Assembly: GCA_030390025.1 (NCBI GenBank)
Contig: CM059431.1
Location: 121,770,001-121,834,000 of the forward strand
Reading direction: 5' to 3'
DNA: 64,000 bases
Source: Squalus acanthias
Taxonomy: Eukaryota
Shown here piece by piece: positions 3,349-63,089 of this stretch. How positions within the stretch are numbered: the first letter of the stretch is position 1; every line of letters begins with the position of its first letter. Under the pieces are notes generated by a model. That model saw only the letters and a list, made by a program, of their open reading frames with translations. It was not told the DNA's origin and made no database searches. Position numbers and translations under genes: made by a program.

Positions 3349-4032
3349 TCAAATGGCAGTGATATGGTCGCACAACAACTGCACATTAAGTGAGTGGTAG
3401 CCTTTGCGGTTACAGAACATCTTAGCATTGTTACACGGTGCCCATAAAGCCACGTGTGTGCGGTCGATGGCACCCTGCACCATGGGGAAGCCCGCCATCC
3501 TTGCAAAGCCACATACACACTCATTCAGAGAGAAGACAATGAAGTCCCTTCTCCTGGATTGGAGAGTCTCTGTGACCTCCCGGATGCAGCGATGGATGGT
3601 GAATTGGGAGATATTAGCTATGTCTCCTGCTGCAGGCTGGAAGGAGCCACTGGCAAAAAAGTTGAGGGCCACGGTGACCTTGAAGGCCACTGGGAAAGCC
3701 ATTGTTGCCCTGCTCTGCAGGTCTGGTTCCAGGAGGTGGCAGAGTTCTGTGACCACCTCCTTGGTGAAGCGGAGCCTCCTAGTACACTGCTCCTTGCTTA
3801 AGTGGAGGTAAGAGAAGTGCTCTCGGAAGACCCTAGGTGAATAAGGCCTCCTGCTGAGAGCCCTCCTAGCCTTCCTCCTCCTCCTCCAACATCTGTGAGC
3901 ATCTTGTCCTCTTCTTCGCTGCCTCCACTCCATCTCCTGAAGATACTCGAGCGTGAGGGGAACTGCAAGTACAGCTCCCATGACTGGGAGCAAGTGGTGT
4001 GAGCAGAAGCCTTTAAATGATGTTAAACCCAC
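3349..4032 (-). pseudogene. Truncated Harbinger (HARBI1-like) transposase, N-terminal half
   Basis: Motifs VTVALNFFASGSFQ, GFPMVQGAIDRTHV and NRKGYHSLNVQLLCD; the C-terminal half is missing. Confidence 0.85.
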
Positions 4033-4343
4033 TCTTGTGCCTTTATTCTTTCAGATAATCAGCCACCGCCTGCTCAGCCTGTCCCTCAGCCTTGTAAGGG
4101 ATTCCTGACCCTGCGTGTCTCGCAGCCTGTGAGATTCACGCGGCTCTGTGCAGCCTGTATGTCAGTGCGGGTCTAGGCCTGGTTGCCTGTTCTGGTCTCC
4201 AGCCAGTCTGGGAACACTAGACACACCTGTGAGTGGTTCGAATCACTCTCCCTTACGGTTCTAGACACTGGACTTAGATGCGAGAGCAGTAATGGAGATA
4301 AAACTCATGTAGACTTGGTTTGAATGGTACGAAATGGAAAATC

Positions 4344-4349
4344 TTTATT
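4344..4349 (-). terminator. Putative poly(A) signal AATAAA in the 3' LTR
   Basis: tttatt on the plus strand, about 250 nt from the LTR 3' end; present in all three LTR copies. Confidence 0.55.
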
Positions 4350-5146
4350 GCATGATACTTAAGATTATGAAATACATGTCATAAGCACAGATTAATGACA
4401 GTACAATCTTACAAACAGTTATATAGTCGATCTTAGGGAAACGAGGAACGAACGGCACAAAATAAATAGGGGCACACATTACAAATATCCTTAATCCTTA
4501 AACCCTCCCCTATCAATATCTATCCTAAACTAGATTCGTAGGATCTCGAGACTCATGCTCACCACTCGTGATAACTCGGAGAAATTCCGAATAGCTGATC
4601 GGATGTTTTTCACCGCAGCACCCACGTGTCGGTCAGGAGATCTCCTGGTCCCACTTGTTTACTTGCTTCTGCTGCTCCGGCTAGCAGGCTGGACCGTCTG
4701 CTGTGATGAAGACCTGTGTTGGTTGGTTTAACAGGTACTCTTGGAGCACAGTTGTCAATATCGTCGATGCAATATGTTTCGTTATAAGTTCGAAGAAGTC
4801 TTCCTGGCGAGGAAAACTTGGCTAATCGACCTACAGGCGCGGTCGGGATTTACTGACCGTGGCGATGGATATGGTCTTCCTCTCTTCTCATCTCATCTCA
4901 TCTCATCTCATCTCATCTCGGGCCTTTGGTTCCGCTGCCAGTTACCAACATAGGTCTTCGTTACGCGACACGAGGTAGATCCGAACGGATCAGAAAGTTC
5001 AACAGTCTTTTCAGAAGAGGCAACAGGCAAGCAGAAGCCCAACTACGAGTACACAGGAGCAGCCACGAGGTTACGAATCGACCGGATAAAAGCACAGGAG
5101 CAAGAGAGCAAGAGCAAGAGAGCGAATGGACGGTTTGGAGCCTGCA

Positions 5147-5215
5147 ATTATAGTGCAAAAATCTTCCGTTTCCCGCCCAACTATAATGTCCATTCTTTTG
5201 TTTAAGGTTTGGCGC
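5147..5215 (-). promoter_or_regulatory. Putative LTR promoter: TATAAT, GC box and E2F-like sites (equivalent copy in the 5' LTR at about 12865-12933)
   Basis: Minus strand GGGCGGGAAACGGAAG...CACTATAATTGC followed by a pyrimidine-rich initiator-like tract; TTTCCCGC and TTTGGCGC match the TTTSSCGC consensus. Confidence 0.45.
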
Positions 5216-5754
5216 CCAAATGTCTTGTATGGGTGATCTCCGTTCTTAATGGGTTTCGGGGTTACTCGTAAATGTCTGAGTACCTGTTAATATTTCTCCC
5301 ATTGTTAAATCGGTCGGTGTTCTCCCTGGAGGGGTTTGGGGCTTCCAAGTGTCCTGTATAACTACCTGCTAACGGCTCTCTCATCGTAGAGTCGTTGGGA
5401 TTTTACATATTAATGTCTTTTGGATGGGCCCTTGATTACTCGGTACAATGGCTTTCCTTTGTACCTGGGAGACCGATTCCAGTATCTATGTTTATACTGC
5501 AAACCCATAATGTCTCGTGTATTATCTTCACTGTGCTGAATCTTAATCGATCTTGCACAAATGTTTATTGGAACGCCATCTTGTCTGCCTGTTGAAAAAG
5601 TCTAGAATGTTCTGTCACGAGGTGCGGCGGCCATTTTACAGGCTGCTTGTGTCCACTTTAAACTTGCCAGCATTCTACTGAAATAAAAGCTGTTTGAACG
5701 AAACTTTGTGTTTTCTCCTTATTAATAAAATCGCGATATATTGCGAATTCTACA

Positions 5755-5765
5755 GTCCCTCCTGT
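5755..5765 (-). other. Polypurine tract
   Basis: Minus strand ACAGGAGGGAC directly abuts the TG start of the 3' LTR. Confidence 0.8.
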
Positions 5766-6207
5766 TGATGCGAATAACTCCGCTTATCGTATCAAAAATC
5801 ATAGTGGTGAGCAATATTATCTCGATTTCTCTCCGAATCCAGTAAATTAATCCCATAATTTTAACTTAGCTAGGGTCTCTGTGTCGTCCTCATTTCACAA
5901 GAAGATTACATTTTATATCACCGTAGGCATTATTTGCCCTTAAACTTACACCACTTGTTTTCCTTCCCGGCGTAACCAGGCCGATGCCTCTCGTATCACC
6001 TGTATATTCATCTTTTATTCAGGGAAAGGAGAAACAAAACCCAAAACCAAACAATCATTTTTTTAACTATAACACCATCACCAAAATAAATCAACACCAA
6101 CTCTTAAAACATGTCGAGTTCCCAACGTATTTACAATCTCTGAAAATCATGATCGAGTACAAACTTCCGCGGCGCACGTGGCGAGCGGGAGTGACGCCAT
6201 TTTCCGA

Positions 6208-8559
6208 TTACACGGTGCTTTCATCGTGCACGCGCACGTAACGTTCTCGCCACTCTCCCGTGTTTTCATGCTTGGTGAGGCGTTTGTCTCTTTTACAATG
6301 TACGACCAATAGGTACACTACAATGAAAACTTGGCATACGACTAAAATGTGGGAGGCTATTCTGATCCATGAAGGTACTTCAATATTGGTGAACAGATTC
6401 CACCACGGTGGAACTACTATATCCAGAATGTCTGTTCCTATTTCGACAGTTTTCTGCTCTAATGTATAAAAATGTTTCTGTGATACCGCGACGGCTTTCA
6501 AAAGCTTGGTGAGGTGTTCAGGGAGAGGGGGAATGAGGTATCCAAAATGCGCGACGAATTGCTGCAAGTCGGTGAAATTCTCTTTTACTGTGAGATGAAC
6601 AGTGGATGGTTCAGGGATTGGGATAATTCGCTGTTGTGCTACTTGAACTTCCGCCCTGGGTTTAAAACAGAAACTGCTGTCACTCACCGGACACCGGCTA
6701 CGGTTTCCATGCTGGTAGTGTTGCGCTGCAGTGGTAACACAATATGTTCCACCCCCGATGTATGCTACCTGCGGAGGCACATGATCTTGTGCCATTGCCT
6801 CCATGGTGCAATTCATGGACTTGGCGCCAGCCGTTCTGAACCCGCACTGTGGTGTTAAAAAGGCATTCAAGTGCTGGGGGCACAGTATTATGTGTGCTCC
6901 CCTGCCACGACAACCAGAGAGATCTGTACCTGTCATCGTTTGCTCCCAGCGGATGACGTAAGGTGGAACCGCTGCATAACGAATGTGGGCTCCCCCCTGA
7001 ATGACACCGATGTTCTCTACCCGATATACCGGGGCGGGCTTTGCTGTGTCGCCCAAAACCGGCATACGTAAAACTATACCCATAATGGTATGGTTTGATC
7101 GTCCGCAGTCCACGGGGACTGGGTATGCTTCTGAAGCTAGCCTGAGCTGGCACGGGCTTAATGCGTTCTGAAAAGGGTGGAGCGCCCGTAGGTGTTTGTT
7201 ACTTATCCAGGACGGAACCAAACCTTGTTTTAAATCCTCCAAATTACTGCGGCCCTCGCCCAGTAACCACGCCCCGTAAAGCACGCACACCTCGTTCTGC
7301 GCAGCTTGATCGGATGCATTCCGATCTTCCCTAATCAGGGCATTTACCGTCTTTGCATGTTTCTCCAACTCTGCTATAATTTCCTTTAAATGGAGGGTCA
7401 TGGCTTGGTCCTCGTGTAGACCCGACCCTACCACTTTATTCTCATCTGTTAGAATGTCCTTTAATTGTGTCTTTAAACCATTAATCTGGGTCTGCAGCTC
7501 CACACTGTCTAGAGCGTTGACCACAGATGTACCTGTGTTAAAAGCAGTGAACGCATCGTTCACCAAACCCCTTCTTTGCCTCCCTACTTGATCCAAAACT
7601 TCCTGTGGCACGGTGTACAAACTTGTTTTATCAATTTCCGCGAAATCGAATTCGTAAAATTGTCTGAACATCTTGGTCAACAGGACCTGGTACAACTGTT
7701 CCGTCTTTTTGGGGCACCACTCTGGTAACCGTACCTCAGTGAGATTTAAAATCACCGAGGCCACCGCGTAATGTACCCCCTGAAATAGTATCTGGTCTGT
7801 GGGGACCAGTACCAAACCATTCCCGGGTCCCTTACTAGCTTTAGGGCACCCTTCTTCCTCAGCTAGAACCACCGGAATCGTGGGCGGGGCTTTGCGTGGG
7901 CGCGTAATGAGTTCAGTGGCATTTACTGGGATTGGGGAGAATGGGGCTCCGCACCCCCTGGTGCTCGCATCCCACCTCATCCCCTGTCCGTTATCCTGCC
8001 ATTGATTAATAAAAAATATGGAGATGCCTTTGGGGCAAACGTACTTTGACCCCCACATACATACATAAATTCCCTCATCCGGTTCCCACCATTTGTCCCA
8101 ACAGACTTTCACTTGTCCGTCTGTCCCCGTAATTGTCCGATGGGTATTATTACCCAGTCGTTCCCACTCGACCGAAGAGTTTCTCATAGTTTTGCTCAGC
8201 TTTCGCAGCCACCACCATCGGCTCAATGGGACCTTCCCACTACAAGTCAAACAAATCCGTTTGCCGACGGTGACGCTGATCCTGGGTGCGATGATCCTTA
8301 CTTTGGGGCACAGTAAAGAAGTCTCTTGGTAGGCAAACCCCGATGTGCTAGAATACTCCGTTGAGTTCGTTCCCAGCCATCCTGGCCACCTTCCCTTGTG
8401 GAAATAGGTGCTGGTCTCCTCTGCCTCCCGTCTTCCGGTCCCATCCACCGCGATGGGGGCCGTGTCCCCGGAACATCCAAACACCACGACATCCTTGGTG
8501 CGGCCTCGATAGGCCAATCCACATCCGATTGCCACGAGCAATACTAGAATTCGTTCCAT
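6208..8559 (-). CDS. env: Envelope glycoprotein (783 aa from the signal-peptide ATG): Ig-like domain, furin site, class I fusion protein with F-like Cys-rich region, TM anchor
   Basis: Signal peptide MERILVLLVAIGCGLA; C..W..DEGIYVC; RQRR|GLVNDAF at 7570-7581; heptad repeat; Cys-rich block TDLSGC...LCPQ...C...C; TM segment ILVVCQVFIVVYLLVV with a basic tail; several N-x-S/T sites; ORF is open. Confidence 0.9.
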   Translation of the reverse strand: MERILVLLVAIGCGLAYRGRTKDVVVFGCSGDTAPIAVDGTGRREAEETSTYFHKGRWPGWLGTNSTEYSSTSGFAYQETSLLCPKVRIIAPRISVTVGKRICLTCSGKVPLSRWWWLRKLSKTMRNSSVEWERLGNNTHRTITGTDGQVKVCWDKWWEPDEGIYVCMWGSKYVCPKGISIFFINQWQDNGQGMRWDASTRGCGAPFSPIPVNATELITRPRKAPPTIPVVLAEEEGCPKASKGPGNGLVLVPTDQILFQGVHYAVASVILNLTEVRLPEWCPKKTEQLYQVLLTKMFRQFYEFDFAEIDKTSLYTVPQEVLDQVGRQRRGLVNDAFTAFNTGTSVVNALDSVELQTQINGLKTQLKDILTDENKVVGSGLHEDQAMTLHLKEIIAELEKHAKTVNALIREDRNASDQAAQNEVCVLYGAWLLGEGRSNLEDLKQGLVPSWISNKHLRALHPFQNALSPCQLRLASEAYPVPVDCGRSNHTIMGIVLRMPVLGDTAKPAPVYRVENIGVIQGGAHIRYAAVPPYVIRWEQTMTGTDLSGCRGRGAHIILCPQHLNAFLTPQCGFRTAGAKSMNCTMEAMAQDHVPPQVAYIGGGTYCVTTAAQHYQHGNRSRCPVSDSSFCFKPRAEVQVAQQRIIPIPEPSTVHLTVKENFTDLQQFVAHFGYLIPPLPEHLTKLLKAVAVSQKHFYTLEQKTVEIGTDILDIVVPPWWNLFTNIEVPSWIRIASHILVVCQVFIVVYLLVVHCKRDKRLTKHENTGEWRERYVRVHDESTV

Positions 8560-8572
8560 CCTTCCTTGGTTC

Positions 8573-8600
8573 CTGTGATCAGATAGAATGAGGTAGCCAG
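8573..8600 (-). promoter_or_regulatory. Putative env splice acceptor
   Basis: Minus strand CTACCTCATTCTATCTGATCACAG|G lies 13 nt upstream of the env ATG. Confidence 0.5.
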
Positions 8601-8845
8601 CCTCGCAAGAGTCTCTGGCTTTTGTGAAGGGTGAGCGGGTCCCCTGACCTCGCCTCACGTAAACTTCAACGTTCGCTGAATAAACTTCAACTAAACCTAA
8701 ATTTAAAACTCCCATCATTTTATCGTTTTCTGTTAAAAACACTACAAACTTAACCTTATTAAAACTATAAACTTAACCTTGAACTATAAACTTACAACTT
8801 AAAACTTATTACTATACAGTGCCGCCCGTTCTCAGGGCGGCCCCT

Positions 8846-9994
8846 TTAAATTCTGAGAAGGCTGCTGCGAGCTCTTCCCGACGGTGGGAGGGCACTGACC
8901 CTTCCCTCTGATCTGCCGCAGCCTGTTGCTGCGCTGACCCTTCCCTCTGATCTGCCGCAGCCTGTTACTGCTGCGATGTGGCCGGTCTGTACCTGGGTTA
9001 TCTTAACCTGAAATTTTCGCCTTGGGGCAGTCTGGGGACATGACCACATCCTCCTGGGCTGGGGTTCTCTGCTTGACCTACGGGGAGTTGCTATGGGCGG
9101 GGGTTCCGTGACGGACGGACCGGGTTCCGAGACCTCCATCGGGATGACCTGGGGTTCCATCACAGTCGCCGGCTCCGCCTCCGCTGACTCCGCCTCCCTA
9201 ACCTCGGGGCTGGCAGTTCGTGGCTCCGCCCTGCTCGGCCCAGCAGGCGGCCCTTCACTCGTGATCTCTGCCTCCCCTGAGGACTGGACGTTCAAAGCGG
9301 GCGGCCACATCTCTGGGAGCCACACCGGTACTCTCTGTGCTCCTATAGCGGCTGGCCCTGCCTCCTCTAGCTCCTCCCTCCTGTCCTCGGGACCTGCAGC
9401 TTGTGTGTCCACCCTGTGTGGATCTCTACCTACAGCCCCCATTCCCTCCAGACCGTTCCTCAGGAACCACCCGTCATCATCACTATGCTCATCTGCACTA
9501 TCCTCATCTGACCAGGGTACCCTGAATTCTTCCTCATCTAACCCCCAATTCCAGAAAAACGCTGCACGATCGTCCGGGATGTCCCTTCCCCTGATGCAAG
9601 CTGCTATGCCTGCCTGTGTGCCTTGTGGTCCTACCTGGGGCTGTGCTTTCCCATTGGCGGGATTTACCCCTGTAGTTTTCCCCTGCGCACCTGGCTGGTA
9701 CAGTTTGCATTGGTTTACATCCTCATACTCCCGGCTTTTGGCTACCCTGTAGGCTGCTTTTATCTCTCTAAGCTGCGCTTCTAGCCTGAGCACGTCTAAC
9801 TTTCCCATTGCTCGGGCGTTCTCCTCCCGCAGGGCCTGCTCTCTAAGCTGCCCTTCCAGCCCATCTATTTTCCCTAATAAGCGGGCGTTCTCCTCCCGCA
9901 AGGCCTGCTCTTTTAACCTGGCCTCCTCACCGCAGACCCCCTCCTGTGCGTGTCTTTTAAAAGGACACAGGTAGGCAGGCTGCGTGGGCTCTAG
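8846..9994 (-). CDS. Unknown 382-codon ORF in the pol position, in frame with gag after UGA-CUAG (coiled coil, acidic, Pro/Glu-rich, basic tail)
   Basis: 31 stop-free codons (LEPTQPAYLCPFKRH...) link the gag stop to ORF 8846-9901 in the same frame; no protease, RT or integrase motifs. Confidence 0.7.
   Translation of the reverse strand, partial: LEPTQPAYLCPFKRHAQEGVCGEEARLKEQALREENARLLGKIDGLEGQLREQALREENARAMGKLDVLRLEAQLREIKAAYRVAKSREYEDVNQCKLYQPGAQGKTTGVNPANGKAQPQVGPQGTQAGIAACIRGRDIPDDRAAFFWNWGLDEEEFRVPWSDEDSADEHSDDDGWFLRNGLEGMGAVGRDPHRVDTQAAGPEDRREELEEAGPAAIGAQRVPVWLPEMWPPALNVQSSGEAEITSEGPPAGPSRAEPRTASPEVREAESAEAEPATVMEPQVIPMEVSEPGPSVTEPPPIATPRRSSREPQPRRMWSCPQTAPRRKFQVKITQVQTGHIAAVTGCGRSEGRVSAATGCGRSEGRVSALPPSGRARSSLLRI
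8895..8966. repeat. 39-bp in-frame tandem duplication encoding TGCGRSEGRVS twice
   Basis: ctgacccttccctctgatctgccgcagcctgtt at 8895 and 8934. Confidence 0.9.
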
Positions 9995-11806
9995 TCATTG
10001 GGTACTATTAGACGGTCCTGCGGCACCTACGGGGCCGGTTGCGACCGCCACCTGTCCACGCGCATTCAAGACCAGCTTGCGCATGGCTCCTAACACTGCT
10101 TCGAGGTCGTCGGGAGGGGTGGGTGCCTTGGCTTCCTTAGCCGGGACAGGCGCCTGGGCTCGGACCGCGGGATTTTTATCCTTGGAATCCTTCCAAGGGT
10201 TCCTGCAATGCTTGCGCCAGTGCCCTGTCTTCCCACACCCGTAACAAGCATTACTTGCCTGTGGGGCGCGATTACCCTCCTGATGCCACTCTCTTTGATA
10301 CGGGGCTGCGGGTCGTACCTCATGTACTCTTCCCTTAAGGGGACGTGTTGCCATACCCCTTATATTGCGATAACCTAACGTGAGTCGATTCAAGACCGAC
10401 TCTTCCGTAATGTTGGGGTCATTGGGATCAAACCATGCTTTTGCCTGTTCTCTAACGGCTGGTAAACTGTTGGCTATTATGCACCTAAGCCAATGAGTTA
10501 AAGCTAAACCTTCCACATCTTCGCGCTCGGGCGCACCTAGACAGCTGCGCTCATATACTGGCCACAGCCTGTCGGCAAAAACCTTCGGGGGTTCTCCCTC
10601 CATCTGCACTGTCTGTCCCACTCTAGCAAACGGACCTTCGTCGTTCGCCCCCAACACTTCCAGGACCTCATTCTTTAATTCCTCATAACTCTTGGTTCCC
10701 CTCTTGCTCTCGCCTGAGAGACACTGAAGGACCGAGCTGTCTAATGAGAACAGCAGCATTTTTGCTGTCTCCCCATCATCGCAGCCGTTAATGGCTGCGG
10801 CTTGCTCAACTTCTCTGAAATGTACGGAAGGGTCGTCTGCCTCGGTCAGCTTCCGTACGTGATTTATCATAGCTCTCAGCTGATGTGAACTGTGAGGCAA
10901 CACCAGCTGTCCGAGGAGATCCCCCGGTTCTTCCCCACCGTTTCTGCTTGGGCCCCTTTTAATACCCGTTACTGGATACAACGATCCCTTTTCTACTTCC
11001 TTTTCAATGGGCTCTTTTGTTTCTCCCATTGCTTCCTCCCTAACCCAGGTTTCTGAATAGCTGGGTGGCGCGGAGGGCGCAGTGGCTATTACTTCTTCTG
11101 CTTTACTTGGTGGGGATTTTCTAAATCTCTCATTTACTAGCGGCTGGTGCGCCGACGGATTGATAAGGCACACCATGCCGTTCGCATTGTTCACGGCCTT
11201 TTTGAGGTGCTCTATCTCCCTTTGGCAGGCGCTATGATCGGCTCCCTGAAACTTATCCTCAAGGGCCAACTTATATGCCGCCCTAACCCCCATTAAGCTC
11301 TCTTCTTGAGTTCTTATCTGGGCAGCTTGGCGGTTACATCTTTCCTTTAACCTGCTCTCATTCAATTTTGCCTCAGTGACCTGGCACTCGAGATAATCTA
11401 TCCTTGTTTTAAGGTGACTGGAGACTTCCTGGCTTTCTTGGTGTAACTCATTTAAATTCTTAATGAGCACCTCCCCTCCAGAAACCTTCTCCTCCATTTC
11501 TCCCTCTAAATGACTGATTCGAGCTACTAGCGCTGTAATGGTCTGGTTTGAAATCTGAACCTGCCTTTTGTAACACATAAGCCAGACTGCTTTCTCAAGT
11601 GTCTTTTTATGTTCTTTACTATCTGTCCACCTTTCAGCTGCCTCTAGTGGGCTCTTATCCGCTAACAATTCACTTATCCATTTCTTAGTTAGATTAACCT
11701 TTCCAAACACATAATCCGCTATCTTTTCCTGCATAACATTTCGTACAGTCATTCCAAAATCTAACACACTACCCTCTCGCTGCCAGTGTCCTGCCGCGGT
11801 CGCCAT
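9995..11806 (-). CDS. gag: Gag polyprotein (603 aa from the ATG at 11806)
   Basis: N-terminal coiled coil; PSAPPSY; capsid MHR-like QMEGEPPKVFADRL; zinc knuckle CYGCGKTGHWRKHC at 10205-10246; the start codon could instead be a downstream Met. Confidence 0.92.
   Translation of the reverse strand: MATAAGHWQREGSVLDFGMTVRNVMQEKIADYVFGKVNLTKKWISELLADKSPLEAAERWTDSKEHKKTLEKAVWLMCYKRQVQISNQTITALVARISHLEGEMEEKVSGGEVLIKNLNELHQESQEVSSHLKTRIDYLECQVTEAKLNESRLKERCNRQAAQIRTQEESLMGVRAAYKLALEDKFQGADHSACQREIEHLKKAVNNANGMVCLINPSAHQPLVNERFRKSPPSKAEEVIATAPSAPPSYSETWVREEAMGETKEPIEKEVEKGSLYPVTGIKRGPSRNGGEEPGDLLGQLVLPHSSHQLRAMINHVRKLTEADDPSVHFREVEQAAAINGCDDGETAKMLLFSLDSSVLQCLSGESKRGTKSYEELKNEVLEVLGANDEGPFARVGQTVQMEGEPPKVFADRLWPVYERSCLGAPEREDVEGLALTHWLRCIIANSLPAVREQAKAWFDPNDPNITEESVLNRLTLGYRNIRGMATRPLKGRVHEVRPAAPYQREWHQEGNRAPQASNACYGCGKTGHWRKHCRNPWKDSKDKNPAVRAQAPVPAKEAKAPTPPDDLEAVLGAMRKLVLNARGQVAVATGPVGAAGPSNSTQ
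11788..11805 (-). other. Primer-binding site, tRNA-Arg(UCG)
   Basis: TGGCGACCGCGGCAGGAC, 5 nt downstream of the 5' LTR, complementary to the vertebrate tRNA-Arg-TCG 3' end GTCCTGCCGCGGTCGCCA as I recall it. Confidence 0.85.
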
Positions 11807-11810
11807 TTTC

Positions 11811-13472
11811 TGTAAGGGATTCCTGACCCTGCGTGTCTCGCAGCCTGTGAGATTCACGCGGCTCTGTGCAGCCTGTATGTCAGTGCGGGTCTAGGCCTTG
11901 TTGCCTGTTCTGGTCTCCAGCCAGTCTGGGAACACTAGACACACCTGTGAGTGGTTCGAATCACTCTCCCTTACGGTTCTAGACACTGGACTTAGATGCG
12001 AGAGCAGTAATGGAGATAAAACTCATGTAGACTTGGTTTGAATGGTACGAAATGGAAAATCTTTATTGCATGATACTTAAGATTATGAAATACATGTCAT
12101 AAGCACAGATTAATGACAGTACAATCTTACAAACAGTTATATAGTCGATCTTAGGGAAACGAGGAACGAACGGCTCAAAATAAATAGGGGCACACATTAC
12201 AAATATCCTTAATCCTTAAACCCTCCCCTATCAATATCTATCCTAAACTAGATTCGTAGGATCTCGAGACTCATGCTCACCACTCGTGATAACTCGGAGA
12301 AATTCCGAATAGCTGATCGGATGTTTTTCACCGCAGCACCCACGTGTCGGTCAGGAGATCTCCTGGTCCCACTTGTTTACTTGCTTCTGCTGCTCTGGCT
12401 AGCAGGCTGGACCGTCTGCTGTGATGAAGACCTGTGTTGGTTGGTTTAACAGGTACTCTTGGAGCACAGTTGTCAATATCGTCGATGCAATATGTTTCGT
12501 TATAAGTTCGAAGAAGTCTTCCTGGCGAGGAAAACTTGGCTAATCGACCTACAGGCGCGGTCGGGATTTACTGACCGTGGCGTTGGATATGGTCTTCCTC
12601 TCTTCTCATCTCATCTCATCTCATCTCATCTCATCTCGGGCCTTTGGTTCCGCTGCCAGTTACCAACATAGGTCTTCGTTACGCGACACGAGGTAGATCC
12701 GAACGGATCAGAAAGTTCAACAGTCTTTTCAGAAGAGGCAACAGGCAAGCAGAAGCCCAACTACGAGTACACAGGAGCAGCCACGAGGTTACGAATCGAC
12801 CGGATAAAAGCACAGGAGCAAGAGAGCAAGAGCAAGAGAGCGAATGGACGGTTTGGAGCCTGCAATTATAGTGCAAAAATCTTCCGTTTCCCGCCCAACT
12901 ATAATGTCCATTCTTTTGTTTAAGGTTTGGCGCCCAAATGTCTTGTATGGGTGATCTCCGTTCTTAATGGGTTTCGGGGTTACTCGTAAATGTCTGAGTA
13001 CCTGTTAATATTTCTCCCATTGTTAAATCGGTCGGTGTTCTCCCTGGAGGGGTTTGGGGCTTCCAAGTGTCCTGTATAACTACCTGCTAACGGCTCTCTC
13101 ATCGTAGAGTCGTTGGGATTTTACATATTAATGTCTTTTGGATGGGCCCTTGATTACTCGGTACAATGGCTTTCCTTTGTACCTGGGAGACCGATTCCAG
13201 TATCTATGTTTATACTGCAAACCCATAATGTCTCGTGTATTATCTTCACTGTGCTGAATCTTAATCGATCTTGCACAAATGTTTATTGGAACGCCATCTT
13301 GTCTGCCTGTTGAAAAAGTCTAGAATGTTCTGTCACGAGGTGCGGCGGCCATTTTACAGGCTGCTTGTGTCCACTTTAAACTTGCCAGCATTCTACTGAA
13401 ATAAAAGCTGTTTGAACGAAACTTTGTGTTTTCTCCTTATTAATAAAATCGCGATATATTGCGAATTCTACA
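11811..13472 (-). repeat. 5' LTR (1662 bp)
   Basis: Direct repeat of 4093-5754, adjacent to the PBS. Confidence 0.97.
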
Positions 13473-16400
13473 GCCTCCCAGTGGCAGCAACGCTGGAGAG
13501 GAAGAGGAACAAGAAGCCAGAGCCTCACTGCTTGTGTCTCCCAAGGGCGAAAGGTCCAATAATGGGGTCACGCATTTGCTGGAGGGGGACCTAGGAAATG
13601 GGTCTGATGTGGGTGAAGCTCCGGGCCCTAGTGGGCTGCAGCAACACCACGGGAAAAGGGAAGCTTAGGGGCTATCTCCCTGGAGGGTGAGTGCACATGC
13701 GAGCTCTGCTGCACAGGACTCAGATGAGGACCTTGATGTGGAGGCGTTGACCACACAGGCGATGAGCATGCACACTGAGCTCATGGGTGCAATGGCAAGG
13801 GTGCCCGAGAGCATGGATGCACTGGCTAGGAGCGTGGAGGAGTCTGCCTCCAGCATTGCACCCATCTCTGCGCAAACCATCGATCCCATCCTTGGCAGTT
13901 TGCAAAGGATGGTTGCCTCGCAGAGAGACCGTGGGGACCCAGACCTCATGCCACGTGTCATTGGTGAGGTGGCAGCAGCTATTGCAGCACAGCCCAAAGC
14001 AACACAACAGCTTAGTGCTGTAATGGATGCAGTGGTTGGTGACATCTAATCTCAGACTGCTCTCATGCAGTCTCAGATTGATGCCATGCAAGCGCTGACT
14101 GCTGCCATCGTCGCTGGGTCGCCCTCAGTCCACCGGGGATCTCATGGTGCCGCAGCAGGCCAGCAATCTGTGCTTGAGCAGATTGCTCCGGATGCTGAGG
14201 TGCTGCCCCGAGGAAGTGGCAGTGTGTCGGTCGAGCAGGAAGGTGCTGTCCTCTCTCAGGATGACAGCATTCCTGCTCCCACCACTGCCACTCCGCCATT
14301 GCACTTGCCGCAGCCTGTAACCCAGCCATCCCGGACTGCTGCCGCCCATGCTGAGTTTGTGCAGTCTGCAGCTGGGCCTTACAGCCCTGAGGTGGCTGAG
14401 GGCGTCCTGCAAGGCCATCTGCAATCTCTGGCTCCCAGACTCAGCAGCCTTCCCCCAGCCTTGCCGCAGCCACTGGGGCCACATTACTGTGGAGCAGTAG
14501 GGTTGGGAGGGGGGGAATTGCAAAGGGGAGGGCAATCATTGAGGAAGGGCGAGTAAATAATACGTTATTAACAAATGGAGGGAATGTGTGTAAATAATTT
14601 GATGTGTTTGTAAATATATTGTTGAGTTTGGTAACAAATAGTTCCGTTTGCTAAGAAATATTTGTGTTTATTGATAAATTGTTGTGTTTGTTTATTAATT
14701 GGTTATGTTTCCTAAGAGAGAGTTGTGCATAATAATAAATATTTAATTCGACGTTGCACATTTTGTGATGTTTCTCATTTGAGCTTTGCCCGGTGATAGG
14801 GGCTGTGAGCTGGCTGTAATGATGTGGTTGTTCTACGCAAAGGCCATGTGCTGTCTCATTTATTGGAAGCGCTGTGTAATGAGGTGATCACGAATGGCCC
14901 TTGTAGAAGCAACATTGAGTGGCTCCCTCCTCTGTTGCTGCTGCTCCTCCTCCTCTTCATCCTCCTCCTCTGCCTCCTCCTCCTCCTTTCTTTCTTCCTC
15001 CTCCTGAGGTAGACCTCCTCAGTGGTAATAGCTGGGCGCTCGGAATGGCCAGGTTGTGCAGCATGCAGCACACAACAATGAAAAGGGAGACTCGATCAGG
15101 GGAGTACTGCAGGGTTCCTCCAGAGCAGTCAAGGCAGTGGAACAATTGCTTTAGCTCCCCGATAATCTGTTCGATCAGGTTTCTGGTGGTGCTATGGGTG
15201 TCATTGTACGCGTGCTGAGCAGGAGTGTTGGGGTTGTGGAAGGGTGTCATCAGCCAGGTTGCAAGTGGATAACCAATGTCTCCGAGCAGCCATCCGCAAG
15301 CTTCACATGGTGGGTTGAACAGTGTTGGGACTCCGGTCATTGACAGGGAGGATGCGCTGTCTGTGGTCGCACACCAACTGAACATTCAGAAAGTGGTAGT
15401 CTTTGTGGTTACGGAAGACCTCTGCATTGTGATGAGGTGCCCGCAATGCCACGTGGGTGCAGTCAATGGCGCCCTTAACCATGAGGAAGCCTGCTATCCT
15501 TGCAAAGCCACATGAGAATTCATCTTGTTTCTCCCTGGTAATGGGGAATGAGATGTACTCCTTTCTCCTTCTGTACAGAATGTCTATCACCTCACGGTTG
15601 CAGCAATGGATGGTGAACTGTTAAATGTTTGCAATATCCCCTGTTGAAGCCTGAAAGGAACCACTGGCGTAGAAATTGAGAGCGACAGTGACCTTCACTG
15701 CCACTGAGAGAGATGGCCTGGTCCTGAGATGAGGCTGGAACTCTCGCTGCAGGAGGTGGCAAAGCTCTGTGACCACCTCCTTGCTGAAGCGGAGCCTTCT
15801 AAAGCACTGCTCCTCTGACAGATGAATGTAGGAGAACTGCTCCCGGAATACGCTGGGAGGGTAAGGCCTCCTGTTGAGAGCCCTGTTGGCCCTCCTCCCT
15901 GTGGCCATGTTTTCCAATCTTTCTCTCTTCCCCCGCTGCCTCTGACAGTGATGCTGGAGGGTGAGGTCCAGTGCCAGTACAGCCCCCATTAAGTGTTGGA
16001 AATGTTGCACTATCAAATGTAACACAAATGAAAGTGATAAATTTTTCTCAGGATCAAAACTCCTTCAAGTAGAAAAAGCTCAGATCAGTAAAAACACCCG
16101 CCTGCTTCTGTCAAACTGACAAGGCAGCATTGTTTGCTGACAAAAAAAAAACCCTGAAGTTCACGACTTTAAATAGATTTCCTGCAACTCCCAGCCGACT
16201 GCAAACCGCCTCCTCTACCTGTTGTTCCTAATGGCAGGCGCTGAGGCAGGGGTCGACAATAAATTTCCGGTCTGGGGTGCTACCGGGGCGATGCACGGCC
16301 AGATGATGTTACGATCTCCAGCCGCAGGCAGGCATGGCGGTAGTGGTAAGCGCCACCGCAAACCGCCAGGTGAATTTTGCCGGCGGCGCCAACATCGCTG

Positions 16401-27113: not shown

Positions 27114-28811
27114 TGTAGAATTCGCAATATATCGCGATTTCATTAATAAGGAGAAAACACAAAGTTTCGTTCAAACAGCTTTTATTTCAGTAGAATGCTG
27201 GCAGGTTTAAAGTGGACACAAGCAGCCTGTAAAATGGCCACCGCACCTCGTGACAGAACATTCTAGACTTTTCAACAGGCAGACAAGATGGCGTTCCAAT
27301 AAACATTTGTGCAAGATCGATTAAGATTCAGCACAGTGAAGATAATACACGAGACATTATGGGTTTGCAGTATACACATAGATACTGAAATCGGTCTCCC
27401 AGGTACAAAGGAAAGCCATTGTACCGAGGAATCAAGGGCCCATCCAAAAGACATTAATATGTAAAATCCCAATGACTCTACGATGAGAGAGCCGTTAGCA
27501 GGTAGTTATACAGGACACTTGGAAGCCCCAAACCCCTCCAGGGAGAACACCGACCGATTTAACAATGGGAGAAATATTAACAGGTACTCAGACATTTACG
27601 AGTAGCCCCGAAACCCATTAAGAACGGAGATCACCCATACAAGACATTTGAGCGCCAGACCTTAAACAAAAGAATGGACATTATAGTTGGGCGGGAAACG
27701 GAAGATTTTGCACTATAATTGCAGGCTCCAAACCGTCCATTCTCTCTCTTGCTCCTGTGCTTTTATCCGGTCGATTCGTAACCTCGTGGCTGCTCCTGTG
27801 TACTCGTAGTTGGGCTCGCTCCTGCTTGCCTGTTGCCTCTTCTGAAAAGACTGTTGAACTTTCTGATCCGTTCGGATCTACCTCGTGTCGCGTAACGAAG
27901 ACCTATGTTGGTAACTGGCAGCGGAACCGAAGGCCCGAGATGAGATAAGATGAGATGAGATGAGAAGAGAGGAAGACCATATCCATCGCCACGGTCAGTA
28001 AATCCCGACCGCGCCTGTAGGTCGATTAGCCAAGTTTTCCTCGCCAGGAAGACTTCTTCGAACTTATAACGAAACATATTGCATCGATGATAACTGGACT
28101 GTGCCCAAAGTAACTGGAACGTGAAAACATATCGTATCGACGATATTGACAACTGTGCTCGAAGAGTACCTGTTAAACCAACCAACACAGGTCTTCATCA
28201 CAGCAGACGGTCCAGCCTGCTAGCCGGAGCAGCAGAAGCAAGTAAACAAGTGGGACCAGGAGATCTCCTGACCGACACGTGGGTGCTGCGGTGAAAAACA
28301 TCCGATCAGCTATTCGGAATTTCTCCGAGTTATCACGAGTGGTGAGCATGAGTCTCGAAATCCTACGAATCTAGTTTAGGATAGATATTGATAGGGGAGG
28401 GTTTAAGGATTAAGGATATTTGTAATGTGTGCCCCTATTTATTTTGTGCCGTTCGTTCCTCGTTTCCCTAAGATCGACTATATAACTGTTTGTAAGATTG
28501 TACTGTCATTAATCTGTGCTTATGACATGTATTTCATAATCTTAAGTAACATGCAATAAAGATTTTCCATTTCGTACCATTCAAACCAAGTCTACATGAG
28601 TTTTATCTCCATTACTGCTCTCGCATCTAAGTCCAGTGTCTAGAACCGTAAGGGAGAGTGATTCGAACCACTCACAGGTGTGTCTAGTGTTCCCAGACTG
28701 GCTGGAGACCAGAACAGGCAGCAAGGCCTAGACCCGCACTGACATACAGGCTGCACAGAGCCGCGTGAATCCCACAGGCCACGAGACACGCAGGGTCAGG
28801 AATCCCTTACA
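27114..28811 (+). mobile_element. Solo LTR (1698 bp) of the same family as 4093-13472, in the opposite orientation
   Basis: Reverse complement of the proviral LTRs; TGTAG...TTACA ends; ACAT TSD at 27110-27113 and 28812-28815. Confidence 0.97.
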
Positions 28812-38289: not shown

Positions 38290-40850
38290 CAACCTTCGAT
38301 ATGGATCATCCACTTGGCACTTCTGGTTGAAAATGGTTGCAAATGCTTCAGCCTTGTCTTTTGCAATCGTGTGCTGGGCACCGCCATCATTGAGGATGGG
38401 AATATTCATGGAGCCTCCTTCTCCGGTCAGTTGTTTAATTGTCCACCACCATTCATGACTGGATGTGGCAGGACTGCAGAATTTTGATCTGATCCCTTAA
38501 TTGTGGGATCGCTTAGCTCTGTCTATGGCATGCTGCTTCCGTTGTTTATCATACAACAACAACAAAAACAACTTGTATTTATATAGTGCCTTTAACGTAG
38601 TAAAATGTCCCAAGGCGCTTCACAGGTGTATTATTAGACAAAACATTTGACACCGAGCCACATAAGGTGAAATTAGGGCAGGTGACCAAAACATTGGTCA
38701 AAGAGGTAGGTTTTAAGGAGCGTTTTAAAAGCGGAAAGAGAGGTAGAGAGGCGGAGAGGTTTAGGCAGGGAATTCCAGAGCTTAGGGCCTAGGCAACAGA
38801 AACATGGCCGCCAATAGTTGAGCGTTTATAATCAGGGATGCTCAAGAGGGCAGAATTAGAGGAGCGCAGATATCTCGGGGAGTTGTGAGGCTGAAGGATA
38901 TTAAAGAGATTGGGCGGGGCGAAGCCATGGAGGGATTTGAAAACAAGGATGAGAATTTTGAAATTGAGGCATTGCTTATCCAGGAGCCAATGTAGGTCAG
39001 CAAGCACGGGGTGATGGGCGAACAGGACTTCGTGCGAGTTATGACATGGGCAGCCGAGTTTTGGATGACCTCAAGTTTACATAGGGTAGAATGTGGGAGT
39101 TCAGCCAAGTCAAGTCTAGAGGTAACAAAGACGTGGATGATGGTTTCAACAGCGGATGAGCTGCAGCAAGGGCGGAGACGGGCGATGTTACGAAGGTGGA
39201 AATAGGCGGTCTTTTTTATGCTGCGGATATGTGGTCGGAAGCTCATTTCAGGGTCAAGTATGACACCAAGGTTGCGAACAGTGTGGTTCAGGCTCATACT
39301 GATGTTAGTGAGAGGGATGGAGTCAGTGGCTAGGGAACTGTGTTTGTGGCAGGGAACGAAAACAATGACTTCGGTCTTCCCAATATTTAATTGGAGAAAA
39401 TTTCTGCTCATCCAGAACTGGATGTCAGACAAGCAGTCTAACAATTTAGAGACCGTGGAGGGGTCGAAAGAAGTGGTGGTGAGGTAGAGCTGGGTGTCAT
39501 TAGTGTACATGTGGAAACTGACGCTGTGTTTTCGGATGATGTCGCCAAGGTGCACCATGTAGATGAGAAATAGGAGGAGGCCAAGGATAGATTATTGGGG
39601 GACACCAGAGGTAATGATGCGGGAGCGGGAAGAGAAGTCGTTGCAGGTGATTGTCTGGTTATGATTAGATAGATAAGAATGGAACCAGGCGAGTGCAGTC
39701 CCACCCAGCTGGAGGACAGTGGAGAGGTGTTGGAGAAGGATGGAGTGGTCAACCGTGTCAAAGGCTGCCGACAAGTCAAGAAGGACAAGGAGGGATAGTT
39801 TACCTTTGTCACAGTCACAAAGGATGTCATTTGTGACTTTGATGAGAGCCGTTTTGGTACTGTGGCAAGGGCGGAAACCTGATTGGAGGGATTCAAACAT
39901 GGAGTTGCGGGAAAGGTGAGCATGGATTTGGAAGTCATGTAGTAATGTTGCAGCTTGCCCAAGTTGGCACCTCATTTTTAGGTACCCCTGGTGCTGCTCC
40001 TGGCATGCCCTTCTGCACTCCTCATTAAACCAGGGTTGGTCCCCTGGCTTGATGGGAATGGTACAGTGAGGGATATGCTGGGCCATGAGGTTACAGATTG
40101 TGGTGGAATACAATTCTGCTGCTGCTGATGGCCCACAGTGCCTCATGGATGCCCAGTTTTGAGCTGCTAGATCTGTTCTGAATCTATTCCTTTTAGCATG
40201 GTGGTAGTTGCATACAACACAATGGAGGGTGTCCTCAGTGTGAAGATGGGACTTCATCTCCACAAGGACAGTGCTGTGGTCACTGCTACCAATGTTGTCA
40301 TGGACAAATGCATCTGTGACAGGTAGATTGGTGAGGATGAGGTCAAGTAGGTTTTTCCCTCGTGTTGGTTCACTCACCACCTGTGTCGCAGGCCCAGTCT
40401 GGCAGCTACGTCTTTCAGGACTTGGCCAGCTCGGTCAGTAGTGGTGCTACCGAGCCACACTTGGTAATGGACATTGTGCTCTTGCTACCCTCAGTGCTTC
40501 TTCCAAGTCGTGTTCAACATGTTGAGTGAGGGCAGTAGGTGGTAATCAGCAAGAGGTTTCCTTGCCCATGCTTGACCTGAAGCCATGAGACTTCACTGGG
40601 TCCGGAGTCAATGTTGAGGGCTCCCAGGGTCACTGCCTCCCGACTGTATACCACTGTACTGCCACCTCTGGTGGGGCTGTCCTGCCGGTGGGATAGGACA
40701 TACGCAGGGATGCTGATGGAGGAGTCTGCGACCTTGGCTGAAAGATATGATTCTGTGAGTATGACTATGCCAGGCTGTTGCTTAACTATTCTGTGGGACA
40801 GTGCTCCCAATTTTGGCACAAGTCACCAGATGTAAGTCAGGAGGACTTTC
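38290..40850 (-). mobile_element. Non-LTR retrotransposon with APE endonuclease (CR1-group), split by the L2 insertion
   Basis: IVILTESYL, RQDSPTRGGSTVVY, PTRGKNLLDLILTN, GSSDHSTV and PWFNEEC; continues at 38290-38552. Confidence 0.8.
38553..39940 (-). mobile_element. L2 LINE 3' portion nested in another LINE
   Basis: QSGFRPCHSTKTAL, LLDLSAAFDTVDH, HMYTNDTQLY and LADLHWL; (GTT)n tail. Confidence 0.9.
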
Positions 40851-52815: not shown

Positions 52816-53367
52816 AAAGAGTCTGCAAAGTGATATAGATAGGTTAAGTGAGTGGGCAAAAAATTGGCAGATGGAGTTTCATGTGGGAAAATGAGAGGTT
52901 ATCAACTTTGGTAGGAAGAATAGAAAAGCAAAATATTATTTAAATGGAGAGAGACTACAGAATGCTGCGGTACAGAGGGATCTGGGTGTCTTCGTACATG
53001 AAACACAAAGGGGTAGAAATTAGGTCGCGCCCCATTTGGGGCGCAAATATCGTCCGGACGCAAATATTAGCGCCTGGCGCTAATTATCGGCACTGACAGG
53101 AAACTTCACTTTTACCGCCCCGGGAGGTGAGTGGAGCGCTAAAGCAGGCGCTGCACACCTCTCTTAAGGCGCAAAGACCAAGGAGTGAGGCGCTAACTCA
53201 GCGCGCGAGCGCAGCACAGCTGCTGCCAGTTAGCGAGGGAACACAGACACACTGGCGCCGGACACTTCTTAAAGCGGGGGGGGCCACTTGCTCCCCAGCC
53301 ACACCCTGCTCATTGCAGCCTTGAATCTCAGCCTGGAGAGACCTGTGAATCCATTTTGCTGCCAAGC

Positions 53368-55408: not shown

Positions 55409-55702
55409 GAGGTGTGACAAAATGCTGGTCATTTTTTTATTAAAGGCCGAGGTTCATGGTCCAACTTTTGTTTAGTGTTTTGGACATTATCTCCAGGTTG
55501 TGAGAACCAGTTATGTTATTGACTGTTTTTTTGTGTTTATTTCTATGAGTTTGTCATGAGGAATTGACACACACAGAGTTTGTAAAATAAATAAGTTTCT
55601 GTATTCAAAATATACATGGCTGGTGGTTGGAATTATTGGTGCCTTGGCCGGCTTAGAGGTTGCGTGCTGGGTTGATTAGTGTTTGTAGCAATGGCAGGGG
55701 CC

Positions 55703-56863
55703 CTAGAAGCGGCTTGCTATTAGTCGTTGACGGACGGCCCTTGCAGTTTGACCATTGTGGGCCGCCCTCCTGCCTTGGTGCTGCTGATGATCATCGTCCT
55801 CGTCCTCTTCCTCCTCTTCCTCCTCCTCCTCTGGTGGTGCTACAAGGCCTGGTGGCATTGGCTGGGTCCTGAGGATTGCCATGTTGTGCAACATGCAGCA
55901 CACGACTACGAAGTTCGAAACTTGCTCAGGCGAGTACTGCAGGGCTCCTCCGGAATGGTCCAGACAGCGGAACCGTTGTTTCAGCACGCCGATTGTGCGC
56001 TCAATAATGTTCCTGGTTGCTTGATGGCTTTCATTGTACCGCAGCTCAGCAGGGGTGTTTGGCGTACGGAGCGGTGTCATCAGCCAGGTGCTCAATGCGT
56101 ACCCCTTGTCCCCCAGAAGCCAACCAACTGGCTGATGCGGTGCCTCGAAAACTTCTGCCACAGTAGTCTGGCGCAGGATGAAAGCATCGTGGCAGCTGCC
56201 CGGATAGTGGGCATTGACAGCGAGTATCACCTGTCTGTGGTCACAGACCAACTGCACATTCAAGGAATGGAACCCCTTTCTGTTCCTGAATTCCTCTGCA
56301 TTCTCTCGCGGAGCACGCAAAGCCACATGCGTGCAGTCAATGGCGCCCTGCACCATGGGGAAGCCCGCTACCCTCGCAAAGCCCAGAGCACGGTCACGCT
56401 GCTTGTCTGGGGTCATAGGGAAAGAGATGAAGTCTCGTCTCCTTCTGAAGAGGGCATTGGTGACCTGCCGGATGCAGCGATGCACCGCAAACTGGGAGAT
56501 ATTGGCGAGGTCCCCAACAGCAGCTTGGAATGAGCCAGTGGCGTAGAAGTTCAAAGCCACTGTGACCTTCACTGCCACCGACAGAGACGTCCTGGACCTC
56601 AGCTGAGGCTGCAGATCTGGCTGCAGCAGGTGGCAGAGCTCAGTGACCAGCTCCTTGCTGAATCGCAGCCTTCGCAAACACAGCTCCTCGGACATATGGA
56701 TGTAGGAGAGCTGTTCACGATATACCCTGGGAGGGTAAGCTCTCCTGTACATGCGCCTGATGGCCCTCCTCCGTCTGGCCATCATTGCCACTCTCTGTCT
56801 GCGTCTTGGTATCCTCCGATTCAGCTGGAGCAGGACGAGGCCCCCAATCATTGCAGCCCCCAT
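55703..56863 (-). CDS. Intact Harbinger DDE transposase (HARBI1-like, 386 aa)
   Basis: GAIDCTHV, NRKGFHSLNVQLVCD, YPGSCHDAFIL, GDKGY and RNIIERTIGVLKQRFRCL in an uninterrupted ORF. Confidence 0.95.
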   Translation of the reverse strand: MGAAMIGGLVLLQLNRRIPRRRQRVAMMARRRRAIRRMYRRAYPPRVYREQLSYIHMSEELCLRRLRFSKELVTELCHLLQPDLQPQLRSRTSLSVAVKVTVALNFYATGSFQAAVGDLANISQFAVHRCIRQVTNALFRRRRDFISFPMTPDKQRDRALGFARVAGFPMVQGAIDCTHVALRAPRENAEEFRNRKGFHSLNVQLVCDHRQVILAVNAHYPGSCHDAFILRQTTVAEVFEAPHQPVGWLLGDKGYALSTWLMTPLRTPNTPAELRYNESHQATRNIIERTIGVLKQRFRCLDHSGGALQYSPEQVSNFVVVCCMLHNMAILRTQPMPPGLVAPPEEEEEEEEEDEDDDHQQHQGRRAAHNGQTARAVRQRLIASRF

Positions 56864-63080: not shown

Positions 63081-63089
63081 ATAGGGGCT

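Follow-up and report, generated by a model that had tools for sequence, protein, structure and literature searches.

A high-copy endogenous retrovirus family of Squalus acanthias that keeps gag and env, lacks the pol enzymes, and is probably served by a related family

A stretch of 64,000 nucleotides (nt) from the genome of Squalus acanthias, referred to here as the window, contains an endogenous retrovirus (ERV) with complete cis signals, open gag and env genes, and no enzymes of its own. We are close to certain that the family to which this provirus belongs, family A, is a replicating, non-autonomous family that is mobilized in trans. The explanation that we find best as a whole, and consider likely, is that family A is a recent, high-copy, satellite-like ERV family with the layout gag-delta-pol-env, in which delta-pol is a remnant of pol, and that it is served by the enzymes of a second family, family D. 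An earlier note, made from the letters of the window, had already described the provirus and made several proposals on its nature.

A provirus with complete cis signals and without enzymes

All coordinates are positions in the window, and the sense of the element is that of the minus strand. The main parts of the provirus are as follows.

4093-13472, minus: family A provirus (from the repeat pair, the duplication, and the frames)
13473-13476, no strand: target-site duplication GCCT flanking the 5' long terminal repeat in element sense (same 4 bases outside both repeats)
4089-4092, no strand: target-site duplication GCCT flanking the 3' long terminal repeat (same 4 bases outside both repeats)
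11811-13472, minus: 5' long terminal repeat, 1662 bp, TG...CA (aligned to the 3' repeat)
11806-11810, minus: spacer of 5 nt (GAAAA) between the 5' repeat and the primer site
11788-11805, minus: primer binding site of 18 nt for tRNA-Arg(TCG) (complementary to the host tRNA 3' end plus CCA)
9995-11806, minus: gag, 603 amino acids (aa) (open frame, motifs, model, and identity to family D gag)
6208-8718, minus: env, 836 aa from the first ATG (open frame, model, and motifs)
5755-5763, minus: short purine tract AGGAGGGAC, 9 nt, adjoining the 3' repeat (sequence read)
4093-5754, minus: 3' long terminal repeat, 1662 bp, TG...CA (aligned to the 5' repeat)

The near-identical long terminal repeats (LTRs), the GCCT duplication, the primer binding site, and the polypurine tract named in the earlier note are all present. 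The two LTRs are 99.76% identical, with 4 mismatches and no gaps, and the primer site is complementary to the host tRNA at 18/18 positions. The gene for this tRNA-Arg(TCG) was located by a pattern search of the genome and called by ARAGORN at two loci (L029 and L030). The start codon of gag (11804-11806) overlaps both the spacer and the primer binding site. The purine tract would act as the polypurine tract, judging by its position alone. Genome-wide, the pattern of the tRNA-Arg(TCG) 3' end had 572 matches, and tRNA-Arg(TCG) genes form tandem arrays on contig C26 (~38.99-42.2 Mb) with a period of ~1,623 bp, some units of which also hold tRNA-Ser(GCT).

The interior of the provirus measures 6,056 bp and contains three long frames: gag, a frame termed ORFX (for open reading frame), and env. 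That the two structural genes are long and open, as had been noted, was thus borne out. To cover the interior for enzymes, all stop-to-stop frames of at least 50 aa in six frames (n = 45) were scanned against Pfam, and 0/45 gave a match to RVT, rve, RVP, or RNase H at E <= 0.1, in agreement with the earlier reading of an interior without protease, reverse transcriptase (RT), RNase H, or integrase. Family A therefore has neither the RT nor the integrase of its own by which an autonomous element is recognized. The element in the window is an LTR retroelement, an ERV provirus with complete cis signals and without enzymes.

Family A consists of many young insertions

The genome assembly searched comprises 3.7 Gb. 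Copies of family A were counted with a 32-mer over the 5' junction of the deletion in pol (described below), allowing up to 2 mismatches. This gave 1,105 matches, against 0 for the reversed control, so that the copy in the window is far from the sole pol-less one. A previous count of 1,586, obtained with a 29-mer over the gag stop, was dropped, as some copies of family D are only one base off this 29-mer. A query of 1,401 nt, covering the end of gag, ORFX, and the start of env, had 41 scored matches on many chromosomes, 40 of them full-length at 97-100% identity and 1 partial.

Copies were sampled as the 20 matches scoring best against the window copy, a choice that is biased toward the subfamily of the window. 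Both LTRs were delimited in 17 elements, namely the window copy and 16 fetched copies. All 17 have the same layout, with interiors of 6,004-6,078 bp, and their LTR pairs are 99.58-100% identical (4/17 pairs without any difference). Where we call the family young, we refer solely to this LTR-pair divergence of 0-0.42%. Perfect 4-bp duplications, all mutually different, flank 15 of the 17 elements. Among the copies containing gag, this gene is open in 18/20; the delta-pol frame is open, with a length of exactly 1,149 nt, in 19/20, and env is open over its full length in 16/21, with 2 further copies open from Met54. The junction count, the 40 full-length matches, and the distinct duplications agree with the proposal, made in the earlier note, of a replicating non-autonomous family and not of a private deletion.

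Two regular arrangements were seen on contig C1. Head-to-tail arrays of family A lie at C1:143655215-143673390 with a spacing of 7.72 kb, which suggests that neighboring copies share LTRs. Three identical matches to the primer site lie at C1:115480831-115519638 with a spacing of 19.39 kb, which suggests a segmental triplication. A solo LTR of family A is also present within the window itself (27114-28811, plus strand; 1,698 bp), 94% identical to the LTRs of the provirus and flanked by the duplication ACAT; it marks an older insertion that was cut down by LTR-LTR recombination.

Could the copies stem from segmental duplication or from an assembly artefact, and not from retrotransposition? The tandem copies with shared LTRs at 7.7 kb and the repeats at 19.4 kb would speak for this. 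However, 15/17 copies each have their own distinct 4-bp duplication, the flanks differ, the copies are spread over many chromosomes, and the solo LTR in the same window has a duplication of its own. We therefore regard this origin as hardly conceivable for the family, and retrotransposition remains the reading that we adopt.

Gag and env are constrained between copies

The ratio of nonsynonymous to synonymous substitution rates (dN/dS) across copies, a check that the earlier note had suggested, was 0.226 for gag (17 copies), 0.098 for env (16 copies), and 0.759 for delta-pol (19 copies). Among changes found in single copies, 21 were nonsynonymous (N) and 29 synonymous (S) in gag, and 27 N and 38 S in env, where neutrality would yield ~3.4 N per S. 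In delta-pol, changes between copies numbered 49 N and 18 S, where the ratio under neutrality would be 3.2. Purifying selection thus acts on gag and env between copies, and delta-pol drifts almost neutrally. Mutations that occur after insertion are neutral, and most of the differences between copies must for this reason have arisen in replicating lineages that needed a working Gag and a working Env. A constrained env is a classical sign of reinfection rather than of purely intracellular transposition.

Synonymous divergence between copies amounts to 0.047 in env, 0.023 in gag, and 0.014 in the pol stump; repeated import of env variants from family D by recombination would fit the excess in env. 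In public sequencing runs carrying five organism labels, from six studies, 43-74% of the sampled 31-mers of the element were found, and near-identical copies may be present in more than one species or label. The only joint in contigs of sequencing runs was a single 85-nt skip in one contig of one run, with no splice of the env-mRNA type, which is uninformative on expression.

The frame between gag and env is a remnant of pol

The region between gag and env is made up of the following parts.

9991-9997, minus: gag stop TGA followed by CTAG, a leaky-stop context (sequence read; same in family D)
9963-9994, minus: retained pol leader, first 11 pol codons (DNA alignment to family D ends 32 nt past the gag stop)
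9755-9962, minus: coiled-coil insert, ~65 codons (similar to the gag coiled coil of family C)
8846-9754, minus: remnant of the pol 3' end, the disordered C-terminal integrase tail (aligned to family D integrase)
8846-9808, minus: ORFX from its own ATG, 320 aa (open reading frame)

According to the earlier note, the slot of pol was occupied by a different ORF and not by a deletion scar. This part of its account did not hold. As its alignments show, ORFX is just such a scar: a pol leader, a gag-like insert, and an integrase tail joined with the frame kept and ending at pol's own stop. The parts removed are the protease, RT, RNase H, and the integrase core. The note had also overlooked that the frame does not begin at the ATG of ORFX: it already opens with the codon that follows the gag stop and spans 382 codons (8846-9994), in phase with gag.

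The evidence for this composition comes from both ends. Between a copy of family D and family A, DNA similarity of 72% extends from the U5 region of the LTR across gag and breaks off 32 nt past its stop codon, which places the 5' breakpoint of the deletion after 9963. At the other end, aa 81-304 of ORFX align with the tail behind the SH3-like domain of the family D integrase (51.5% identity at the amino acid level and 72% at the DNA level), and the stop of ORFX (8846-8848) aligns with the stop of family D pol. The coiled-coil insert is not present in family D pol. Residues 33-95 of ORFX instead match the gag region of a family C element, L040 (39.7% over 68 aa, E 1.2e-5), and the DNA of the insert is 79% similar to family C gag over 58 nt. 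Within the insert, a stretch of 30 nt is repeated (96.7%), as is one of 23 nt. We infer that a structure of this kind is what template switching during reverse transcription would produce.

Gamma- and epsilonretroviruses express gag-pol by readthrough of a stop codon, and the layout that this entails, a frame in phase behind a single stop, is found in both families, with protease in family D and delta-pol in family A. Family D has the same CAA-TGA-CTAG, behind which a protease (DTG motif) lies in frame, whereas no protease is found there in family A. The TGA CTAG context is preserved in 19/19 copies of family A that hold the site, and UGA CUAG is said to favor readthrough in the relevant part of one study (bioRxiv 10.1101/2021.04.18.440353). 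A hairpin, a candidate for an RNA structure that would stimulate readthrough, starts 6 nt past the gag stop (-39.1 kcal/mol, z -2.06; 10/200 shuffles fold as well); since its 3' arm lies beyond the deletion breakpoint, it was not inherited from pol. The Gag-delta-pol product of readthrough is probably a tolerated by-product, and a function of its own is conceivable.

The same delta-pol layout was observed at loci L042, L044, L047, and L050-L052, at 70-95% identity to the window copy. Given subfamilies at such distances, the deletion derivative seems to be old and diversified, and no recent one-off.

Family D is a likely helper of family A

Relatives were searched for with a pattern consisting of the LTR end, a short spacer, the tRNA-Arg site, and a next base unlike that of family A, which returned 292 sites of several classes. 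Twelve of these sites were sampled over the 600 nt that follow gag: 4 encode protease or RT, 7 are ORFX-like (70-95% identical to family A), and 1 is gag-like. The four pol-bearing samples are 92-98% alike and constitute family D. The autonomous relatives that the earlier note had proposed to look for, with this LTR end and primer site plus pol, could thus be found, and they have the same spacer as well: families A and D have in common the LTR terminus TTACA, the GAAAA spacer, the primer site, and the stop cassette. The primer tRNA is tRNA-Arg(TCG) in families A, C, and D alike.

Family D is abundant, with 2,152 matches to a 32-mer over its gag-protease junction. A 200-aa piece of its integrase gave 150 scored matches at 96-100% identity. 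The open frame around the match measures exactly 1,496 aa for 24/150 and 1,481-1,520 aa for 38/150, the length expected of a whole pro-pol. By these measures, family D looks young and competent.

The two families differ by ~25-28% in U5, gag, and the tail of pol, and their Gag proteins share 67% aa identity. In env, the picture changes abruptly. Over aa 371-668 of Env, family A and one copy of family D are 93.5% identical at the nucleotide level and 96% at the amino acid level. Identity to this copy, taken per 100 nt, is 39-82 upstream of a breakpoint and 98 and 95 downstream of it, so that a switch from ~75% to 95-98% takes place within ~100 nt, between the first ATG of env and the signal sequence.

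8600-8690, minus: approximate recombination breakpoint, ~8645 (element position 4828), from the switch in identity to the family D copy

A 32-mer in env has 3,270 matches, close to 1,105 + 2,152, the sum of the two junction counts. The sharing of env by the two families implies recent recombination between them. Retroviral recombination needs two RNAs in one particle; the shared env therefore points indirectly to co-packaging of A and D genomes, as a helper relation predicts. On these grounds, family D is a likely helper of family A. We think it probable both that family D, or a close D-like element, donates the enzymes, and that family A makes use of its own Gag and Env. In one case, a copy of family A was found inside a D-like gag, its flanks overlapping by 4 bp.

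The helper might instead be an autonomous twin of family A, combining an A-type gag with pol, which is exogenous, of low frequency, or missing from the assembly; family D would then be a cousin that exchanges env. We consider this rather unlikely. In its favor, A and D are ~28% apart in gag and U5, which is far for cleavage of the A Gag and for co-assembly. Subfamilies with ORFX at 70-95% identity to family A imply an old deletion, the parent of which may be gone. The same idea has been put forward for zebrafish Bik-1 in the text of the study that describes it (bioRxiv 10.1101/2024.03.25.586437). Against it, no A-type pol leader was seen to run on into pol: an exact 28-mer, which is blind to diverged copies, had 2 matches, and both look like point changes at the deletion junction. 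Moreover, family D is abundant, has many open pol frames, shares all cis signals tested, and has recombined with family A. We therefore keep to family D as the more probable helper.

The second question is whether the proteins of family A matter at all. In a manner similar to ETn and MusD, the A RNA could be a passive one that is packaged and enveloped by family D, the low dN/dS being a legacy of recent origin or of recombination. Gene-less non-autonomous ERVs are the known norm, as in the cattle D-type elements covered in PMC10924933, and since env is shared with family D, its constraint could be imported. This does not extend to gag, which is not shared (67% aa identity to family D), and yet has a dN/dS of 0.23, single-copy changes biased toward synonymous ones, and an open frame in 18/20 copies. 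In the same copies, delta-pol stands at 0.76, a contrast that is internal to the element. A purely passive role is, in our judgment, improbable to the point that we continue with the reading in which family A relies on its own Gag and Env.

Gag

The frame at 9995-11806 can be assigned to a retroviral Gag from sequence comparison; because it is homologous to the gag of pol-bearing elements, we consider the assignment settled. The protein has a long N-terminal helix or coiled coil (~aa 69-183), a disordered linker with the late-budding motifs PSAP (at 244) and PPSY (at 247), a predicted two-lobed, helical, capsid-like domain (~aa 307-492), and a single CCHC knuckle (aa 521-534), for which the Pfam zf-CCHC match is weak (E 0.29). 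The PSAPPSY stretch is retained in family D gag.

When the Gag model was compared with known structures by VIA-align, capsids made up 9 of the 10 best rows (the capsids matched being those of MLV, copia, PEG10, Ty1, Arc, HERV-K, and FIV), with Z-scores of 7-9, which is below the caution line of the tool for helical folds. The best row was MLV capsid (CA), with Z 9.1 and a root-mean-square deviation of 3.5 over 92 aligned residues. The best match by Foldseek was MLV CA as well (E 0.18), and the neighbors of Gag in a protein language model are Retrotrans_gag/PEG10-type clusters. By sequence, protein searches with Gag, or with Gag plus the readthrough frame, returned no Gag relatives, and the search against the PDB returned weak zinc-knuckle matches only.

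Env

Env has all the features of a lokiretrovirus-type envelope, from the signal peptide and the basic cleavage site through the fusion peptide and the coiled coil to the anchor. Translation likely has an alternative start at M54 (8559), located before a signal-like hydrophobic stretch. A furin-type site, RQRR (7570-7581, aa 380-383), precedes a fusion-peptide-like stretch, and the membrane anchor lies at 6295-6366 (aa 785-808). There are 10 N-glycosylation sequons, and the model shows long heptad helices. This model, built on 22 family members, has a predicted local distance difference test (pLDDT) score of 56.8 overall, and of 75-93 over ~aa 290-360 and 480-700. In a Foldseek search of the PDB, the best among the matches listed were all F proteins of paramyxo- and pneumoviruses, the first with E 4.4e-11 and probability 1.00, and the listed matches cover ~490-510 aligned columns.

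At the sequence level, this likeness is not visible. PF00523 of Pfam matched 0/22 members of the Env alignment at E <= 1, and a sequence profile search of the PDB with Env gave nothing meaningful. The relatives of Env that the searches did find come from sharks, skates, and frogs only, where they are unannotated or inside chimeric gene models; one such chimeric shark gene model has a weak Baculo_F match (E 0.0011). One unnamed chordate protein cluster was found at 0.84. The predicted structure, taken with the furin-type site, the fusion-peptide-like stretch, the heptad helices, the anchor, and the sequons, makes Env a class I fusion glycoprotein of the paramyxovirus F type, with a likeness to F at the fold level only.

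Other families and neighboring elements

Two further families were considered. Family B, found on contigs C18, C7, C8, C4, C3146, and C24, is an unrelated ERV family that encodes an integrase and an RNase H of its own alongside an F-type env. Its env is ~45% identical to a Mustelus protein and ~35% to family A env, and its gag has two zinc knuckles. As a helper or parent of family A, it was rejected, with LTR ends that differ, a gag without detectable similarity, and an env only ~35% identical. In its copy on C8, the integrase core directly follows gag, a layout from which it follows that family B also has internally pol-deleted members. Family C, represented by L040, was set aside as a distant cousin with the same primer site and a gag only 34-43% identical. 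The L040 pol matches RVT_1 and, in addition to RT_RNaseH_2/RT_RNaseH, RNase_H, i.e., a second RNase H.

The window also contains unrelated mobile elements. A Harbinger/PIF-like DNA transposon (53197-57058) has ORFs for a Myb/SANT-like protein (53197-54216, plus strand) and a DDE_Tnp_4 transposase (55706-57058, minus strand; E 3.8e-39). A decayed DDE_Tnp_4 fragment (3349-3981, minus strand) adjoins the provirus, and fragments with RVT_1 matches, from unrelated retroelements, lie at 39595-40434 (minus strand, E 2.7e-8) and 63039-63770 (plus strand, E 9.6e-5).

A model for the mobilization of family A

In the mechanism that we propose, family A would be satellite-virus-like, with its own coat and a borrowed replicase. 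In a cell that expresses both families, the Gag of family A, with its late-budding motifs, would at least partly build the particles and package A RNA. Gag-Pro-Pol of family D, made by readthrough of the same stop cassette, would enter these particles through Gag-Gag contacts. The RT of family D would prime on the shared tRNA-Arg site, and its integrase would recognize the shared LTR ends and make the 4-bp duplications. The common F-type Env would carry the particles to new germ-line cells, and co-packaging of A and D RNA would account for the recombinant env.

Several points weigh against this model. The support for mobilization of A by D is indirect, by way of the recombinant env, and the near-identity in env comes from one D copy over ~1.2 kb, together with the argument from counts. 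With a D gag only 67% identical, the model has to assume that A Gag assembles together with D Gag-Pol. The dN/dS of env may partly mirror selection in family D, imported through recombination. The copies sampled were the top-scoring ones, whose intactness and youth may exceed the average of the family, and the duplications are unmatched in 2/17 copies. Finally, confidence in the Gag model is low (mean pLDDT 52.4), and capsid Z-scores of 7-9 are not decisive for helical domains.

A bolder version goes further: family A may be a long-lived germ-line satellite retrovirus, i.e., an obligately helper-dependent element whose own capsid gene has been selected through ~28% divergence from its helper, which has taken up env repeatedly, and which still spreads from cell to cell in living cartilaginous fishes. 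We hold this to be possible, with the balance tilting somewhat against it. If true, satellite viruses would for the first time have a counterpart among retroviruses, with coat and replicase split into two co-evolving genomes.

Family A is a dependent partner without any enzyme, whose two structural genes have stayed intact and constrained in about a thousand young copies, and it can be paired with a concrete, abundant, and apparently competent helper with which env has been exchanged. The pair makes several questions directly testable: how many of its functions a retrovirus can leave to another, whether parasitism by defective partners contributes to the extinction of ERV families, and how a helper and its dependant evolve compatible capsids and come to share an envelope. 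Cartilaginous fishes are also shown to be hosts of F-type, lokiretrovirus-like envelopes and of retroviral activity that is very recent.

Comparison with known systems

Word searches of open-access text found no description of a pol-less ERV family with gag and env. Non-autonomous ERVs known so far are gene-less passengers (ETn and the cattle D-type) or carry gag only (BHIKHARI). ETn/MusD of the mouse and EAV-HP of the chicken, the latter pol-deleted, are reportedly pol-defective ERV families that multiplied through enzymes supplied in trans; ETn is said to be without coding capacity, and EAV-HP to number tens of copies, compared to ~1,100 for family A. To our knowledge, neither ETn nor EAV-HP is known to keep gag and env under selection. 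Most known satellite viruses, which have their own capsid gene and use the replicase of a helper, are RNA viruses or small DNA viruses associated with plants, arthropods, or giant viruses. The division of labor is the same as that proposed for family A, but a retroviral germ-line case would be an analogue and not a relative.

The Env of lokiretroviruses, as portrayed in the main text of PMC7947760, is related to paramyxovirus F and has a signal peptide, a basic cleavage site, a fusion peptide, a coiled coil, and an anchor; their pol has a degenerate second RNase H, and their hosts are anamniote vertebrates. Family A has the same set of Env features, whereas a dual RNase H was seen only in its relative, family C. 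The Env of family A is not detected by PF00523, the Pfam model relied on in that text, and its F fold is a predicted one. The main text of the same paper contains none of the words "cartilaginous", "shark", or "Chondrichthyes". From its F-type Env, the dual RNase H of its relatives, and the architecture of Gag, a place of family A among the lokiretroviruses is plausible.

A pairing of two ERV types has been described in cattle, where ERVK[2-1-LTR] comprises autonomous C-type helpers and, with the same LTRs, a non-autonomous D-type without functional genes, a "parasite of a parasite" (PMC10924933). As in our case, an autonomous element has a very successful defective partner. The cattle D-type, however, lacks functional genes, whereas the structural genes of family A are intact and selected, the gag genes of A and D are far more diverged, and env is shared.

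The nearest described case is BHIKHARI of zebrafish. Its members Bik-1 and Bik-2 are presented in the text consulted as non-autonomous endogenous lokiretroviruses with a Gag of ~617 aa, without pol or env, and with a partner that has not been identified (bioRxiv 10.1101/2024.03.25.586437). Like BHIKHARI as presented there, family A is a recently active, multi-copy LTR element of fish, with a Gag of ~600 aa that has a coiled coil and a capsid domain, and with enzymes that would come from a partner. Unlike BHIKHARI, it keeps an open, strongly constrained env and an in-frame remnant of pol behind the gag stop, and its Gag has a CCHC knuckle where that of Bik-1 has a glycine-rich patch. Its host, moreover, is a cartilaginous fish, and it has a candidate helper with shared cis signals and signs of recombination. 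What family A adds to the known cases is thus the retention of both gag and env, the in-frame stump of pol, the copy number, the host group, and a helper that can be identified.

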